A stretch of DNA of 56,635 bases, taken from contig RPQN01000017.1 in the NCBI GenBank assembly GCA_003819715.1, forward strand, positions 1 through 56,635, written 5' to 3'. Below, piece by piece: positions 49,831-56,635 of this stretch. The number at the start of each line of letters is the position of its first letter. Position 1 is the first letter of the stretch. Source of the stretch: Ignavibacteriota bacterium (lineage in GTDB: Bacteria; Bacteroidota; Ignavibacteria; UBA10030). Below the pieces are notes generated by a model, which worked only from the letters and a program-made list of their open reading frames with translations, was not told the DNA's origin and did no database searches. Position numbers and translations under genes: made by a program.

Positions 49831-51234
49831 ATGCCGCTGGTCCTTCCCTCCACCCTTGATCTTCAGCTCCTCGAAGCGTTTGTGTTGATGCAGAAAGCGA
49901 ATGCAGGCGAGTCGCCCGCTCAACATGAATTAGGGTTGCGTTATTTATTCGGCAAAGGATTTCCCGCCGACACGGCAAAGGCCGCCTATTGGATTCAAAA
50001 AGCCGCTGACCAGCATTTGATGCTTGCACAGTACAACCTTGGCATTCTCTCCATGAACGGCCGCGGTGTGGAGTGGAATCCATTTAAAGCGTTCGAATGC
50101 TTCCATGCCGCCGCAGAGCAGGGAAATCCGGAGGCGCTGTATGTGGTGGGTTTAATGTATACCGAAGATCTCATTGTGCCTCGGAGCTGGCCGACGGCAT
50201 ATTCCTACTTTACCAAAGCGGCGGTATCCGGATCGGAGGCGGGAAAGAGTACCAAAAAAGAAATGGAACGGCGCGGACTCAATAAGAGCGACACCGCAAA
50301 TACCACTTCGGCGAAAGCGGTCCATCCGGATAAAAGCGCTGCGCATCCTGCAAAAATTGACACCAGTACCAACCTCCTGTTTATTGATTTCCACACCGAC
50401 ACCACTTCGACCATTGAAGATACCACTCTCATTCGCGAAGCATATCAAGGAATTGACACACTTTCTCCGTCCGCCGCCGCACCGGATTTAGGAAATCAAT
50501 CCTTCCTGTCAAAAACGGCAATGTCCGGAAATCCTGAGGCGCTCTGCCTCCTCGGACGCTGTTATGAACATGGATTGAATGTTCCTCGTGACGTTATTCT
50601 TGCGGGAGTATATTACCTCCGTGCATTTATTCTGAACTCCAACCGTGCACCGGCGCTTCTCTGGAAGCTGATGAATACGGATGATTTTGCCCGCGAACTT
50701 GAACTCCGTTCCTCAAAAAACGATGCGGAAGCTCTCTATGTCTGGGCCGGATTAACGTCGATTGGTTTCAGTAAAGTATTGAACGAGAAACAGGCCTTGA
50801 ACCTCCTGCAGCGCGCCGCAGCCGCCGGACATGTCCCATCGATGGTAGAATTAGGTTCGTGTCATTTCACCGGCCGCTGGGTGAAGCAGAACCGCGAAAA
50901 AGCGGTCGAGTGGTGGAGCCGTGCCTCATCCCTGGGGAGTGTTGAAGCGGACATCCGTCTCGCGGCTGCGAACGTCCTTGGACAAATCCATACGCAGGAT
51001 ATCGAATCTTCGATTTCTCTTCTCCGCAACACGGCAAAAGAAGGGTCCCTGCTCTCAGATTTAACACTGGCACGATGTTATGAAAAAGGAATTGTCTTAT
51101 CGCAAAATAAAGGCGAATCATACCGCATCTTTCACAAATCCATGCTGAGAGGAAGTGAGACGGCTTATGTTGCCCTCCGAAGCATGCACGATGAAATCCG
51201 GCCTCCGGCCCGGGAATACCAGATGCCGGATTGA
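49831..51234 (+). CDS. Sel1-repeat (TPR-like) protein
   Basis: Repeated A..W..KAA.QG...A...LG..Y..G.GV units (e.g. AAYWIQKAADQHLMLAQYNLGILSMNGRGV). The frame stays open upstream to 49684 and encodes a signal-peptide-like segment without a canonical start (see findings). Confidence 0.85.
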   Translation: MPLVLPSTLDLQLLEAFVLMQKANAGESPAQHELGLRYLFGKGFPADTAKAAYWIQKAADQHLMLAQYNLGILSMNGRGVEWNPFKAFECFHAAAEQGNPEALYVVGLMYTEDLIVPRSWPTAYSYFTKAAVSGSEAGKSTKKEMERRGLNKSDTANTTSAKAVHPDKSAAHPAKIDTSTNLLFIDFHTDTTSTIEDTTLIREAYQGIDTLSPSAAAPDLGNQSFLSKTAMSGNPEALCLLGRCYEHGLNVPRDVILAGVYYLRAFILNSNRAPALLWKLMNTDDFARELELRSSKNDAEALYVWAGLTSIGFSKVLNEKQALNLLQRAAAAGHVPSMVELGSCHFTGRWVKQNREKAVEWWSRASSLGSVEADIRLAAANVLGQIHTQDIESSISLLRNTAKEGSLLSDLTLARCYEKGIVLSQNKGESYRIFHKSMLRGSETAYVALRSMHDEIRPPAREYQMPD

Positions 51235-51558
51235 TGAGGAATACTCATATCGGAAAGTGGAGCGGCGCGTTTTATGTTCAGACTCCGTTCGAAGATCTCT
51301 CTCCGTCTTCCGACGATAAGACACCTCTTATGTTTATTCTTGCTTAACCATGTGCATCCCTTCCATTCTCCCGATCAATTTCACCCTGTCATTGTTGGCA
51401 TCCCTTCGGTGGTCCCTGCATGAAAGGAAAACCGGCCATAATGATTTAGAATATGAAAAACATTGAGAATGACGTATGAAACCGGATTAAATTTCATTGT
51501 TCATTTTTATACAAAAATCTTTGACATGTTAATCCAAAATCCACTATGTTTCAAAATC

Positions 51559-54186
51559 ATGATACGCGCATGGATTATCCTGAAATCGTCAAGAAGTAAT
51601 TTTTTACTCCGGCCGATATCCTTCTTCATCCTCTTTTTACTTCTCAGTTCCGGAACCCCGGCAAAAGAACTTCGCCCGAATCCTCTTCTTCAGTACATCC
51701 ATAAAACTTATACGAGCGACGACGGATTGCCTCAAAACCGAAGCAGGGCAATGGTCCAAACTCGCGACGGTTTTCTCTGGATAGGGACACAGGACGGACT
51801 TGCCAGGTTTGATGGAACTTCGTTCCAGGTTTATGATAAAGAACATACACCCCAATTAAAAAGTAACGATATCACATCCCTTTTTGAATCCCCGGACAGC
51901 AGCCTGTGGATTGGGACATTCAATGGTCTGACTCAATTGAAGAATGGGATATTTTCCTCCCATGCTCTTCAGACCGGACCTGTCCGTGGAATTGCTGCAG
52001 ATCCGGCGGGGACTCTTTACATCAGCACGATGAATAATGGGATTTATAAGTATAAAGATGGGAACTATGATTCCATCACGACGTCCCAGGGATTGAACGA
52101 CAACTCGTTGAATGTGTTTACCGTCGATCAGCAGGGAACCATTTGGGTCGCTTTAAGCGGGAAGGGGCTGAACGTCTATCGGAATGGCCGGTGGCTGCTC
52201 TATAACACTAAAAATGGATTTCCCAGTAATACCATCCGGAGTTTTTGTGCCGGTTCAGATCAGACCGTCTGGATCGGTACTGAGAACGGGCTGGTCCGCT
52301 GGAAAAACGGATCGTTCCATACCTATACCACCGCCGACGGACTCACCGATAATATTATTCCCTCTCTCTTCGAAGACCGATCGGGCGCGTTGTGGATTGG
52401 AACGGAGCGCGGCGGAATCTGCCGATTGAAGGATAATGTGTTTTCCTCATACCGTTCCGTGGACGGTCTCTCCAGCGATTATGTCACCACCATTCTGGAA
52501 GACCATGAAGGAAGCCTCTGGGTCGGTACGTATAATGCAGGATTAAATCAATTTTGGAAGGGAAAATTTATAAACTATTCTGTGCGTGATGGAGTGCCTG
52601 CCCGGACCATCCGCACGATGCTGACCGCACATGATGGTTCGGTGTGGGCGGGCACCGAAGGCGGCGGTGTTTTACATTTTAACGGAAATAAATTTGTGCC
52701 GTTCGAAGAAAAGAATATTCCCAGCGATTATATCCGGTCACTCTTCGAAGATTCCCATGGGAATTTGTGGATCGGTTTACGCGAAGGACTTGCACAATAC
52801 CGCAATGGGAATTACCGAATCTTTACGACCAAAGACGGCCTGTCGCAAAATTTTATCCGGGTGATGGCGGAAGATCATGAAGGGACTCTTTGGGTGGGGA
52901 CTTACAACAACGGCATGAACCGATTCGAGAAAGACCATTTTGTCAATTACCAAAATAAAGGAATGCCAGTCAACTTAATCCGGTCCATCCTTGTCGATCA
53001 TGCAGGCGTGATCTGGATCGGAAGCAATGAGGGACTTCTGCGATGGCAAAATGGATTGATGTCTCTCTACACGAGTAAAGACGGACTGCCCTCCGATCCT
53101 TTCTTCGATATGATTGAGGACAGTGAACACACGCTATGGATGGGGAGTTATGGCGGCGGCCTGGTGAGGTTAAAAAACGGGAAGTTTACATGTTTTACCA
53201 CTGCGCAGGGTCTTTTTAACGATGTCATCATGAAAATTCTTGAAGACGACTTCGGCAATTTATGGCTGGGGAGCATGAAGGGGATCGGATGCATCAGTAA
53301 AAAAATACTGGATGATTTCAGTAACGGCACGATAGACCGTCTTCAGTGCGCTTCGTACAGTTCCTCGGACGGCATGCTGGTAAGCGAATGCACGGGTCCG
53401 ACCGGATGTAAAACTGCCGACGGCCGTCTCTGGTTCCCGACACCCAAAGGGATTGTTGTGGTTGATCCGAAAAAAATACTGAAAAACAATCTTCCTCCGC
53501 CGGTGGTTATTGAACGGGTGGTTTTTGACAGAAAAGATTATTCTCCGTACGAGTATGCCGCATTCCCTCCCGGAACGGGACAGGTGGAATTCCAGTACGG
53601 GGGGATGAGTTTTATCGCGCCTCAGAAGGTTCATTTCCGTTATATGCTGGAAGGGTTTGAAAAAGAATGGAGAAACGCAGGGACAAGGCGCAGCGCGTTC
53701 TATACCAACCTGTCTCCGGGAAAATACACCTTCCGCATCACCGCCTGCAATAACGACGGTGTGTGGAATGAATCCAGAGCAAGTTTTGCGTTCGAGCTGG
53801 AACCGCATTTCTATCAGACGTTCTGGTTCATGGGCGTTCTGCTACTGGCTATTGGTGGAGCCGGATTTGGGTTACATCGCCTCCGGGTCTGGCAGCTCGT
53901 CGCAAGAGAAAAAATGCTCAAAGTGTATGTCGCCGAAGCAATGACGAAAATAAAAGTACTGAACGGCCTCATTCCGATTTGTTTCAACTGCAAAAAAGTG
54001 CGCGATGATCAAGGATATTGGAAGGGATTGGAACGCTACATCAAGGATAATTCCGAGGCGACATTCAGTCATGGCGTTTGCCCCGAATGTGCGGAAAAAT
54101 TACGCGATGGCTTTCTCTCAAAAAACAATGAAAAGCTGGGAAGTATCTTATCTCAATTTCTACCGACGGATACTTCAAAAAAGTGA
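51559..54186 (+). CDS. Two-component-regulator-propeller / Y_Y_Y domain transmembrane protein with C-terminal four-Cys module
   Basis: Many Reg_prop-like repeats (LWIGT/WIGT..GL about every 45-50 aa). The Y_Y_Y segment is FRYMLEGFEKEWRNAG ... YTNLSPGKYTFRITACNNDGVWNE. It has one TM segment (FWFMGVLLLAIGGAGFGL) and then ends in ICFNCKKVRDDQGYW ... FSHGVCPEC. Start taken at the ATG at 51559. Confidence 0.85.
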   Translation: MIRAWIILKSSRSNFLLRPISFFILFLLLSSGTPAKELRPNPLLQYIHKTYTSDDGLPQNRSRAMVQTRDGFLWIGTQDGLARFDGTSFQVYDKEHTPQLKSNDITSLFESPDSSLWIGTFNGLTQLKNGIFSSHALQTGPVRGIAADPAGTLYISTMNNGIYKYKDGNYDSITTSQGLNDNSLNVFTVDQQGTIWVALSGKGLNVYRNGRWLLYNTKNGFPSNTIRSFCAGSDQTVWIGTENGLVRWKNGSFHTYTTADGLTDNIIPSLFEDRSGALWIGTERGGICRLKDNVFSSYRSVDGLSSDYVTTILEDHEGSLWVGTYNAGLNQFWKGKFINYSVRDGVPARTIRTMLTAHDGSVWAGTEGGGVLHFNGNKFVPFEEKNIPSDYIRSLFEDSHGNLWIGLREGLAQYRNGNYRIFTTKDGLSQNFIRVMAEDHEGTLWVGTYNNGMNRFEKDHFVNYQNKGMPVNLIRSILVDHAGVIWIGSNEGLLRWQNGLMSLYTSKDGLPSDPFFDMIEDSEHTLWMGSYGGGLVRLKNGKFTCFTTAQGLFNDVIMKILEDDFGNLWLGSMKGIGCISKKILDDFSNGTIDRLQCASYSSSDGMLVSECTGPTGCKTADGRLWFPTPKGIVVVDPKKILKNNLPPPVVIERVVFDRKDYSPYEYAAFPPGTGQVEFQYGGMSFIAPQKVHFRYMLEGFEKEWRNAGTRRSAFYTNLSPGKYTFRITACNNDGVWNESRASFAFELEPHFYQTFWFMGVLLLAIGGAGFGLHRLRVWQLVAREKMLKVYVAEAMTKIKVLNGLIPICFNCKKVRDDQGYWKGLERYIKDNSEATFSHGVCPECAEKLRDGFLSKNNEKLGSILSQFLPTDTSKK

Positions 54187-54243: not shown

Positions 54244-56635
54244 ATGACATGCAGGAAATCAATACGACAACTGTTGATGATTGCTCTTCTCGGCAATGGT
54301 GTGGTGTATTCATCCAGTCCCCCGCCGAACGAACATGCCAAACCGCTGACACAATACATCCAGAAAGTATGGACCAATAAAGACGGATTACCGCAAAATT
54401 CCGGCAGAACATTGCTCCAGTCATCCGATGGATTTCTCTGGATTGGCACACAGGACGGCCTGGTCCGTTTCGATGGCGCATCGTTTCAGGTTTTTGATAA
54501 GCAAAACACACCGGCGCTCAAGCACAATGATATTACAAAATTGATCGAATCCCGGGATGGAACACTGTGGATCGGATCGTACAATGGTTTAACGAGCCTG
54601 AACAAAGGAGTCTTTACCTATTATCCATCCAGCGCAAACGATGAACCGGACGTCGTTCGGGCGCTTCTCGAAGACCATGAAGGATGCGTGTGGGTGGGAA
54701 CGATGAATGCAGGGATCAGAAAGTATACGCATGGGAATTTCAGCATCATTTCAAAATCCCAGGGCCTCACAAGCGATGCCATTTATGCACTTGCAGAAGA
54801 CCAGCGTGGAGACATCTGGATCGGAACAGATGCCGGTGTCAATGTCTACCGGCAAGGTCAATGGGTGTATTATCATGAACGCGATGGGCTTCCCCATGAG
54901 GCAATACGATGTATTTGTGTTACTTCGGACAGCAGCGTGTGGATCGGAACGTACAATGGATTAGTACAATATAAACGAGGGGTGTTTCACACCTACACCA
55001 CATCAGATGGATTATCCGATAATACGATCCGCACCATTTATGAAGATCATACAGGAGAAATATGGATCGGTACGGAACGCGGAGGGGTCAGTCAGTTTAA
55101 TCACGGCGCCTTTATTCCGTTTCGTTCGTCGGAAGGACTTTCGGGAGATTTTGTTTCTGCGATCCTGGAAGACCGGGAAGAAAACATATGGATCGGAACG
55201 TACAATGCCGGACTCAATCAGTTCTCCAAAAGCACGTTCTTCAATTATACCTCGCGTGATGGGTTGCCGAATGACTTCGTCGCTTCAGTGATTCAGAGCC
55301 GCAACGGCGATGTCTGGATCGGTTCCGGCGGCAGCGGGGTCTATCGGTTCAATGGAAAAAAATTTATCGCCTATACCCGCAGCAATGGATTGCCCAGTAA
55401 TTCTATCAGGTCGCTGTTCGAAGATTCCCAGGGGACAATTTGGATTGGTACGGTCGGTGGTTTGGCGCAGTATAAACGGGGAACCATCCGTGCCTTTACG
55501 GAGAAGGACGGCATATCGCAGAGTTATATCCGCGCGATCGGCGAAGACCTGGAGAAGAAAATCTGGGTGGGCAGTACCAGCAGCGGTGTATTTCGACTGA
55601 CATCAGGCCGCTTTGTGAGCTATAAGGAGAAGGGCATCCCTGCGGCCGTGATCCGTTCTCTTCTTGTCGACCATGAAGGTGCGGTCTGGATTGGAAGCAA
55701 TGATGGAGTACGCCGCTGGAAGGACAATCGCGTCACACTCTCTACACAAAAAGACGGACTGCCTTCCGATCCAATTTATGTGATCATGGAGGACAGTTCT
55801 CATACGCTTTGGATGGGGAGTTATGGCGGCGGATTAGTCCGCTGGAAGAATGGAAAAATCACACGTATTACGCAGGCACAAGGGCTCTACAACGACGTCG
55901 TCTTTCATCTTCTCGAAGATAACAACGGCCTCATCTGGATGAGCAGCCTCCGGGGGATTAGTTCTGTCAGCCGTCAAATGCTGAATGACTTTGCAGACGG
56001 CAAGATCGACCGCATACAATGCAATTCGTACACCTCCTCTGACGGTATGGTGAACAGCGAATGCACCGGAAACGCGCAGTCGGGCGGATGTAAAACCTCG
56101 GACGGGCGCTTATGGTTTGGCACCACGGGCGGGATTGTTGTCATCGATCCGAATCAGCTTCACAAAAAAAGTGATCCGCCGCCGGTGGTCATCGAACGTG
56201 TCGTGGTGGACCGCAGTGATTATACTCCGTACGATTACGGATATTTCGCCCCCGGACGCGGGCAGGTGGAGTTTCATTATGGCGGGCTGAGTTATATTAC
56301 TCCCCAGAAAGTAAATTTCCGTTACAAGCTGGAAGGTTTTGAAAAAGAATGGAGATTTGCGGGAACCAGGCATGGAGCGTTTTATACGAATCTCGCACCG
56401 GGGAAGTATGTCTTTCGCGTCACCGCATGCAATAGCGACAATGTCTGGAATGAAACCGGGGCCAGCTACGCATTTGAACTCGAACCGCATTACTACGAAA
56501 CATGGTGGTTCTACGGCCTCTTATCGCTCGTGGTCGTCGGGGCTGGATTTGGGCTGTATCGCCTCCGTGTGTGGCAGCTCCTTGAACGCGAGAAAGAACT
56601 CACCGTGCGAGTCAACGAGGCCACTGCAAACATCA
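54244..56635 (+). CDS. Paralogous propeller / Y_Y_Y transmembrane protein, 3'-truncated by the window end
   Basis: Absent from the ORF track because it has no stop codon. I translated frame 1 from the ATG at 54244 to the last base and found no stop. The architecture is the same: signal peptide, WIGT repeats, FRYKLEGFEKEWRFAG ... YTNLAPGKYVFRVTACNSDNVWNE, and TM WWFYGLLSLVVVGAGFGL. Confidence 0.85.
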   Translation, partial: MTCRKSIRQLLMIALLGNGVVYSSSPPPNEHAKPLTQYIQKVWTNKDGLPQNSGRTLLQSSDGFLWIGTQDGLVRFDGASFQVFDKQNTPALKHNDITKLIESRDGTLWIGSYNGLTSLNKGVFTYYPSSANDEPDVVRALLEDHEGCVWVGTMNAGIRKYTHGNFSIISKSQGLTSDAIYALAEDQRGDIWIGTDAGVNVYRQGQWVYYHERDGLPHEAIRCICVTSDSSVWIGTYNGLVQYKRGVFHTYTTSDGLSDNTIRTIYEDHTGEIWIGTERGGVSQFNHGAFIPFRSSEGLSGDFVSAILEDREENIWIGTYNAGLNQFSKSTFFNYTSRDGLPNDFVASVIQSRNGDVWIGSGGSGVYRFNGKKFIAYTRSNGLPSNSIRSLFEDSQGTIWIGTVGGLAQYKRGTIRAFTEKDGISQSYIRAIGEDLEKKIWVGSTSSGVFRLTSGRFVSYKEKGIPAAVIRSLLVDHEGAVWIGSNDGVRRWKDNRVTLSTQKDGLPSDPIYVIMEDSSHTLWMGSYGGGLVRWKNGKITRITQAQGLYNDVVFHLLEDNNGLIWMSSLRGISSVSRQMLNDFADGKIDRIQCNSYTSSDGMVNSECTGNAQSGGCKTSDGRLWFGTTGGIVVIDPNQLHKKSDPPPVVIERVVVDRSDYTPYDYGYFAPGRGQVEFHYGGLSYITPQKVNFRYKLEGFEKEWRFAGTRHGAFYTNLAPGKYVFRVTACNSDNVWNETGASYAFELEPHYYETWWFYGLLSLVVVGAGFGLYRLRVWQLLEREKELTVRVNEATANI

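Follow-up and report, generated by a model that had tools for sequence, protein, structure and literature searches.

Sensor gene A and its four-cysteine tail

The window, a stretch of 56,635 nucleotides (nt) from an Ignavibacteriota bacterium (contig RPQN01000017.1), carries at its far end two tandem genes predicted to encode large periplasmic sensors. The first of them, sensor gene A, ends in a four-cysteine module of about 48 residues, hereafter referred to as the tail, which is the subject of the present analysis. Gene A is located on the forward strand at positions 51559..54186 (stop codon 54184-54186) and encodes 875 amino acids (aa) if counted from the ATG at 51559. The mechanical open reading frame (ORF) opens at a TTG at 51463 and would comprise 907 aa, but the ATG at 51559 is the more plausible start. 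A signal-peptide-like sequence begins at this ATG, and the corresponding database entry is 905 aa long, indicating that gene callers disagree on the start.

The N-terminal signal peptide or anchor (MIRAWIILKSSRSNFLLRPISFFILFLLLSSGTPAKE; 51559..51660, as all following parts on the forward strand), which was read by eye from the sequence, is followed by the predicted periplasmic ligand-binding region of about 720 residues (51661..53820). This region is made up of Reg_prop beta-propeller repeats (Pfam PF07494, 10 stretches, E 1.8e-66) and ends with a Y_Y_Y domain (53614-53796; PF07495, E 3.6e-18). The single transmembrane (TM) helix FWFMGVLLLAIGGAGFGL (residues 755-772; 53821..53874) was recognised as a hydrophobic stretch followed by HRLRVW, consistent with the positive-inside rule. 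It leads into a 30-residue signalling helix or coiled coil (HRLRVWQLVAREKMLKVYVAEAMTKIKVLN; 53875..53964), modelled by AlphaFold as a helix with a predicted local distance difference test (pLDDT) score above 95, and from there into the tail (residues 803-850; 53965..54108), which is supported by profile matches, conservation and AlphaFold modelling. Its arrangement is GLIPIC-FN-C-KKVRDDQGYWKGLERYIKDNSEATFSHGV-C-PE-C-AEKLRD, with the cysteine codons at 53980, 53989, 54079 and 54088, and it reads GLIPICFNCKKVRDDQGYW...FSHGVCPEC. The remaining 25 residues form a C-terminal extension (54109..54186 including the stop codon) which is poorly conserved, with 0-44% identity outside the closest relatives. 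In total 103 residues follow the TM helix, and the first cysteine (Cys1) is located 35 residues past it.

Translation of 53959-54186 (+), the C-terminal end of the ORF 51463/51559-54186, yielded LNGLIPICFNCKKVRDDQGYWKGLERYIKDNSEATFSHGVCPECAEKLRDGFLSKNNEKLGSILSQFLPTDTSKK followed by the stop codon, which is identical to the tail sequence quoted in a first-pass annotation of this DNA. The same annotation had claimed that the sensor is devoid of a kinase, receiver or AraC output, and indeed neither HisKA and HATPase nor REC and AraC domains were detected in the gene A protein in a Pfam scan, even at E<=1. The helix leaving the membrane and the Cys4 tail are the whole cytoplasmic part of the gene A product. 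The coiled coil proposed behind the TM segment was also recovered as a helix, although its length had been underestimated (30 residues instead of about 25). When the last 93 residues were used as query, full-length homologs of gene A shared 87-95% identity over this part.

Conservation and distribution of the tail

A profile built from 12 tail sequences was run against 1.84 billion cluster representatives (clusters at 50% identity) and matched 23,218 protein clusters at E<=1e-3, of which 18,715 also passed E<=1e-10. In the genome collection at least 593 loci match the tail. The search with the last 93 residues of gene A revealed the same tail on Reg_prop/Y_Y_Y sensors in metagenome-assembled genomes (MAGs) of Bacteroidota. 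It also turned up, at E 1e-16 to 1e-13, on TPR proteins of unrelated architecture, including one in a Gemmatimonadaceae MAG. The hosts among the matches listed include the Bacteroidota, the Ignavibacteriota, many Desulfobacterota lineages, the Acidobacteriota, Nitrospirota, Nitrospinota, Spirochaetota/Leptospirales, Verrucomicrobiota, Hydrogenedentota, Marinimicrobia and Victivallales, while later searches added the Chloroflexota, Zixibacteria, Cloacimonetes and Omnitrophica. The tail was thus found in at least 12 bacterial phyla. The statement in the first-pass annotation that similar tails terminate diverse sensory proteins in spirochaetes and other phyla is borne out by these profile searches and by the domain scans described below. 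Judging from the profile matches, the tail motif is a real and very widespread domain, far beyond chance.

Plasmids and viral contigs are nearly free of the tail. A single weak plasmid match was obtained on a Dongshaea marina plasmid (NZ_CP028898.1:36178-36288; 51% identity, E 1e-5), at a position without a listed gene, and one tail locus was detected among 2.9 million viral contigs. This points to a chromosomal and cellular domain.

The cysteine spacing C-x2-C-x29-C-x2-C is kept in 134 of the 134 tail copies examined, so that the four cysteines, whose conservation had been in question, are invariant among these homologs. The family consensus following the coiled coil is L-x-G-[LI]-[LI]-P-I-C-x2-C-K-K-[IV]-R-D-D-x-G-Y-W ... 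F-S-H-G-[IV]-C-P-x-C, and the tail of gene A holds all of its invariant columns. Besides the cysteines about 20 positions are conserved at >=74% in 306 tails. Numbered relative to Cys1, these are L-6, G-4, L-3, P-1, I0, K5, K6, I7, R8, D9, D10, G12, Y13, W14, E18, Y20, H24, S25, A27, F29, S30, H31, G32, P35, L41 and Y42. The second cysteine knuckle is CPxC in 75% of the tails. Among the Reg_prop homologs the tail is 60-77% identical, whereas the identity of the periplasmic domain drops to 20-46%. On this sequence comparison the tail is the best-conserved part of the gene A protein.

A divergent copy was observed at locus L014, where the second match (fragment L014_1) reads FTICSNCGNAKIDSNRWIQI...RISHGICPDCLYSLYPE. 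It keeps the four cysteines, the tryptophan, SHGICPxC and LYP, and does not contain KKIRDD. Judging by this variant, the fold may not require the KK-R-DD loop.

In 70 of 70 genomic examples the tail is located 7-41 residues from the C-terminus. The extensions past it are short (median 15 residues) and, in the examples printed, appeared by eye to be of low complexity.

Search for related families and folds

In the Pfam scan (2025 copy) the tail had no significant match, the best hits being XPA_N with 14.5 bits (cut-off 27.1) and Zn_ribbon_3 with 12.2 bits (cut-off 27). Scans against NCBIfam 20.0 and PHROGs returned sub-threshold noise only. None of the curated zinc-ribbon or Cys4 zinc-finger models of Pfam and NCBIfam was matched. 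Profiles of 12 and 57 sequences reached best E values of 0.11-0.26 against the PDB sequences (R-spondin, glutamate dehydrogenase), which is regarded as noise, and in Foldseek searches no entry of PDB or BFVD reached E<=0.001 with either of the AlphaFold models. Furthermore, no description of the domain was found in the full-text literature, motif strings included, and the source databases name the tail proteins by their N-terminal domains alone. The statement that no function has been assigned to the tail therefore held in all of these searches. We conclude that these roughly 48 residues form a domain which belongs to no described family.

AlphaFold modelled the tail alone with a pLDDT of 78.5, and coil plus tail, based on 57 sequences, with a pLDDT of 74.6 (coil above 95). 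The models show a compact strand-helix-helix-strand-helix unit with each CxxC at the end of a strand. In the models the cysteine knuckles are followed by helices and not by ribbon hairpins, so that the zinc-ribbon-type module suggested in the first-pass annotation is putative.

Three known cysteine-containing families were considered as candidates and rejected. Rubredoxins have the cysteine spacing C-x2-C-x29-C-P-x-C, equal to that of the tail. The hhalign comparison gave a probability of 7% over 9 columns, confined to the CPxC knuckle; there is no glycine after either CxxC in the tail, in contrast to the rubredoxin knuckles C-x2-C-G ... C-P-x-C-G, and no rubredoxin family appeared in the Pfam scan at E<=1. 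HalOD2 (PF18547) was not matched in the Pfam scan either, and it differs in spacing, size and hosts. As for the ZAS anti-sigma factors, the tail carries its motif H-x2-C-x2-C at the C-terminus, and no anti-sigma zinc-finger family was found in the Pfam scan at E<=1.

These comparisons bear on two alternative interpretations of the tail. According to the first, the four cysteines form a centre that responds to redox state or oxygen, be it a switch of the Zn-thiolate type, an Fe(Cys)4 site as in rubredoxin or a bridging Fe-S cluster, and the tail would serve as a second input or as a regulated dimer lock, the output being achieved by tail-to-tail association with rarer tail proteins that bear an effector (winged helix-turn-helix, wHTH; REC-GGDEF; REC-Hpt). 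The rubredoxin-like spacing, the frequent CPxC knuckle and the occurrence in many lineages regarded as anaerobic (Desulfobacterota, Nitrospirota, Anaerolineae, Syntrophia) agree with such a centre. The sole faint echoes of the tail in sequence and fold, which are at noise level, are the structural Cys4 sites in the dimerisation domains of Fur and PerR and also speak for this interpretation. However, the poor rubredoxin alignment and the missing rubredoxin family argue against it, as does the presence of the tail in hosts regarded as aerobes (Gemmatimonadaceae, Chitinophagaceae, Leptospirales). Taking the results below into account as well, a redox centre seems unlikely.

The second interpretation regards the tail as a small zinc-ribbon-like nucleic-acid-binding domain, which would turn the sensor into a membrane-tethered (ToxR/CadC-style) or soluble one-component regulator in direct contact with a conserved DNA or RNA element. 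Many Cys4 modules do bind nucleic acids, and the conserved residues K5, K6, R8 and K40 together with the aromatic residues Y13, W14, Y20 and Y42 would suit phosphate contacts and stacking. Galperin et al. (2018, PMC5847659) also proposed DNA or RNA binding for HalOD2, an analogous domain of archaea. On the other hand, the tail is slightly acidic, with a median net charge of -2 in 460 distinct tails, only the 35 residues mentioned above separate Cys1 from the membrane in the gene A product, and no nucleic-acid-binding zinc-finger family or structure was matched in Pfam, PDB or by Foldseek. Nucleic acid binding as the output is therefore considered improbable.

Coupling of the tail to the sensor

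The helix upstream of the tail shows hydrophobic a/d positions at -20, -16, -13, -9, -6 and -2 relative to Cys1, without a single insertion or deletion in 306 tails. Between the DIT motif of PAS domains and Cys1, 55 cases show a distance of 35 residues and 2 cases one of 42, and from the KPF motif of REC domains the distance to Cys1 is 41, 48, 55, 62 or 69 residues (41+7n) in 79 of 90 cases. In all Reg_prop-type members the RxRVW motif past the TM helix is found at the fixed offset of -35. Changes in linker length survive almost only as whole heptads. The same whole-heptad rule is obeyed by the linkers of PAS kinases and by the S-helix (Anantharaman, Balaji and Aravind 2006, PMC1592074).

A linker quantised in heptads is expected of a rigid parallel coiled coil by which rotation or scissoring is transmitted to an output working as a dimer. 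It further suggests that the tail is a regulated output acting as a pair rather than a passive tag. The linker data thus argue that the tail is constrained to act as a coiled-coil-controlled pair. They also weigh against the redox centre outlined above, since a domain coupled in this manner receives signals rather than only generating them.

The strict C-terminal position could alternatively indicate a tag for localisation, array assembly or regulated degradation without any signalling output. Sorting tags such as the C-terminal domains of the type IX secretion system (T9SS) and GlyGly-CTERM share this position with the tail, and likewise its very diverse carrier proteins and its lack of a conserved neighbour gene. 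A tag, however, needs no rigid linker in heptad register to the upstream sensor, and the proteins consisting of input domains and the tail would be left without any output. Moreover, stand-alone coil-tail proteins exist, such as P0122 with 75 aa. We consider a mere tag to be very improbable.

Partner domains and architectures

Among 121 tail proteins scanned for domains, PAS was detected in 39, REC in 11, TPR in 7, and GAF and HAMP in 5 each. MASE6, sCache and a diguanylate-cyclase-type sensor domain also precede the tail in this set, and other searches added DUF3365, CHASE3, 7TM sensor, Reg_prop and Y_Y_Y. No enzymatic output domain was found among the 25 most frequent families in the 121 proteins.

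Response regulators with the architecture REC-coil-tail are common, which places the tail downstream of phosphorylation. The nearest relatives of their REC domains occur in REC-GGDEF, REC-HisKA and REC-cyclase proteins. When a REC-tail protein served as query, the matches were mostly to REC domains, and little was gained beyond fusions with an internal tail. These fusions (P0209, P0210, P0211, P0214 and P0218) are arranged as REC-coil-tail-REC-GGDEF, REC-coil-tail-REC or REC-coil-tail-REC-Hpt. They may be genuine fusions, or adjacent genes may have been merged.

In P0051 (two Reg_prop/Y_Y_Y units) and P0052 (REC-tail-REC-tail), a single polypeptide carries the whole sensor-coil-tail arrangement twice. 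Within P0049-P0089, about 40 of the 150 best-scoring proteins hold two full units, including a double Reg_prop/Y_Y_Y sensor of 1405 aa; the ranking by summed score favours double-unit proteins, so that this proportion may differ from the true frequency. The double-unit polypeptides mirror the tandem gene pair of the window.

About 13 clusters (P0250, P0265, P0318-P0329) out of more than 300 scored encode REC-(GAF)-coil-tail followed by a winged helix of about 70 residues, which was recognised as HTH_IclR (24.2 bits; cut-off 22) and HTH_24 (22.2 bits; cut-off 21.9). The named members of this clade belong to the Chloroflexota and Anaerolineae. Among the architectures observed, it alone has a recognisable DNA-binding domain past the tail. 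If the tail itself bound nucleic acids, the winged helix of the Chloroflexota clade would be redundant. For the redox alternative, by contrast, the existence of proteins joining the tail to an effector is a point in favour, and so are the tandem and fused double units, which suggest homotypic pairing, although the combination of tail and effector is rare, as the count of wHTH clusters indicates.

Tandem paralog and gene neighbourhood

Sensor gene B (54244..56634, +) starts 57 nt downstream of gene A, with no terminator-like site in the gap. Its 797 codons remain open to the contig end, the design is the same as that of gene A, and both proteins share 56% identity over the periplasmic region. 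The contig ends about 10 codons short of the expected Cys1 of gene B. Whether the truncated paralog carries the tail, a question posed by the first-pass annotation, was addressed by means of a syntenic relative (L001). Gene B is colinear with sensor B of L001 up to 10 residues before Cys1, and the latter runs on ...KILGGLIPICASCKKIRNDKGYW...FSHGVCPEC, its end reading ...KILGGLIPICASCKKIRNDKGYWSQLEEYINEHSEATFSHGVCPECAEKLYGG.... Since its counterpart ends in the tail, gene B almost certainly carries the tail as well, as judged from this alignment.

Tandem paralogs bearing the tail were found in the window and in L001, L002, L016 and L057. In L001 and L002 (where the relative's protein is 80% identical) the synteny is kept over two SQS_PSY genes, MerR, ABC-F, Sel1, sensor A and sensor B. 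The Sel1-repeat gene, at 49831-51234 in the window, is located directly upstream of the sensor pair, likewise in L001 and L002, and may be functionally linked to the sensors in a lineage-specific manner. In both relatives sensor B is split into ORFs of 765 aa and 169 aa in different frames (L001, 13150-13175). The junction in L001 has a run of eight A, while gene B of the window is intact across this point. The split in L001 may reflect a sequencing slip, or else sensor B is a pseudogene there or contains a slippery site.

Clustering of 841 ORFs from 82 tail loci revealed no neighbour family in more than 9 loci. Judged by their representative sequences, which were read by eye without Pfam annotation, those families that do recur seem to consist of unrelated housekeeping genes, and nothing in the tail neighbourhoods recurs beyond orthologous loci. 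No conserved small ORF was found within 900 nt downstream of the tail gene, no kinase or regulator gene adjoins the sensors of the window, and no sigma factor gene was found near tail genes in the window, the relatives or the tail loci. The lack of a conserved neighbour gene would be compatible with nucleic acid binding as well.

Proposed function of the tail

The Cys4 module is strongly constrained, occupies the output end of proteins that otherwise consist of input or receiver domains, and is connected to them by a heptad-locked coiled coil. It is therefore highly likely that the tail is a real, regulated output domain. Its operation as a dimer controlled by the coiled coil is probable, a logic supported by the tandem tail-bearing paralogs and the double sensor-coil-tail polypeptides, and it appears quite probable that the four cysteines bind one metal per module, zinc being likelier than iron. 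Our best reading, which we offer as tentative, is a metal-stabilised dimeric output module driven by the coiled coil and recruiting a conserved partner encoded elsewhere. It is possible, if somewhat more doubtful, that this target would be a protein acting as a hub and not a nucleic acid or a small molecule.

According to this reading, the periplasmic Reg_prop/Y_Y_Y region would bind a ligand, as may be expected from its family, members of which bind oligosaccharides in the hybrid sensors of Bacteroides. The sensor would dimerise, either as a homodimer or as a heterodimer with the tandem paralog, and the signal would pass via the TM helix into the parallel coiled coil. The coil is predicted to run directly into the first strand of the tail (L-x-G-L-I-P-I-C), so that rotation or scissoring would rearrange the paired metal-bound modules. 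One of the two states would then show a near-invariant polar and aromatic surface composed of KK-R-DD-G-YW, E, Y, HS and FSH. This surface of the tail pair would presumably bind or release a soluble conserved partner which is common to all tail sensors of the cell. Hence, the signal would exit by regulated recruitment or sequestration of a protein, involving neither phosphotransfer nor a newly made nucleotide messenger. If all tails share one partner encoded elsewhere, this would account for their extreme conservation between paralogs and between phyla, and also for the missing conserved neighbour.

Several points weigh against this reading or limit it. The conservation statistics were obtained from top-scoring or pattern-selected sequences and overstate the invariance across the full family. 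Confidence in the AlphaFold models is moderate (pLDDT 75-79), the two disagree after the first CxxC, and metal binding is deduced from the sequence alone. No partner was identified by the clustering of neighbours from the 82 loci or among small ORFs downstream, and the target may be a nucleic acid or a small ligand instead of a protein. In the proteins with a wHTH, REC-GGDEF or REC-Hpt part after the tail, it could furthermore be an element of transmission or dimerisation instead of the final output.

A more far-reaching version would see the tail as the docking element of an undescribed, phosphorylation-free route by which many different sensors and response regulators of a cell (PAS, REC, TPR, Cache, propeller and others) converge on one conserved hub protein or ligand, using identical Cys4 modules driven by coiled coils. 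We regard this as rather unlikely. If true, such a docking route would be present in at least 12 phyla and its scope would be comparable to that of signalling from chemoreceptors to CheA or from GGDEF to cyclic di-GMP (c-di-GMP).

Censuses of signal transduction classify proteins by their output domain. The tail proteins, being named by their input domains, look output-less and are currently designated as 'PAS domain S-box protein', 'response regulator', 'tetratricopeptide repeat protein' or 'two-component regulator propeller domain-containing protein'. With at least 18,000 clusters at 50% identity they appear to constitute a large class of sensors and response regulators which is abundant in lineages typical of sediment and soil. 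A name for the domain, a solved structure and an identified partner would close a visible gap in one- and two-component signalling, and synthetic sensors could be equipped with the tail as a tiny modular output. For the window itself, the tail explains why the two large periplasmic sensors have no kinase.

Comparison with known signalling systems

The design of a sensor, a signalling helix and a C-terminal output is familiar, while the output domain itself belongs to no described family. Like the hybrid two-component sensors of Bacteroidota, such as the glycan sensors of Bacteroides thetaiotaomicron, the gene A protein combines a periplasmic Reg_prop propeller and a Y_Y_Y domain with one TM helix, from which a helical segment leads into the cytoplasm. 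In the hybrid sensors these parts are followed by a cassette of HisKA, HATPase, REC and an AraC helix-turn-helix (HTH), whereas here the 30-residue helix and the 48-residue Cys4 tail are found instead.

The parallel coiled-coil linker of whole-heptad length is common to the tail proteins and to the outputs coupled via the S-helix (PAS-HisKA, REC-GGDEF, HAMP-cyclase). The outputs of those systems are enzyme domains of 150-250 residues, in contrast to the 48-residue tail without known activity. The paper describing the S-helix contains no mention of such a Cys4 domain (PMC1592074).

Galperin et al. (2018, PMC5847659) provisionally described HalOD2 and TackOD1, cysteine-rich domains in the output position of response regulators from archaea. 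Like the tail they are small, carry CXXC pairs after a REC domain and are predicted zinc fingers of unknown function. HalOD2 comprises about 130 residues with 20-25 residues between the CXXC pairs and was reported from 14 halobacterial proteins (PMC5847659). The tail, by contrast, has 29 residues between the pairs, is bacterial and is at least a thousand times more abundant.

The ZAS anti-sigma factors (H-x3-C-x2-C) share the concept of a tiny cytoplasmic metal-binding module on a single-pass sensor, which holds or releases a soluble regulator. Their module is N-terminal and their genes adjoin an ECF sigma gene, whereas the tail is C-terminal and has thus the opposite topology, its motif is H-x2-C-x2-C, and no adjacent sigma gene was found. 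In the structural Cys4 zinc site of Fur, PerR and Zur, finally, two CxxC pairs lock a small alpha/beta dimerisation unit, as may be the case in the tail. The faint echoes of these proteins are all at noise level (PerR E 0.87; Fur 9ire E 0.37-0.7), and the Fur family differs in its cysteine spacing, with 36 residues between the CxxC pairs in PerR of B. subtilis, in its N-terminal winged helix and in not forming the tails of sensors.

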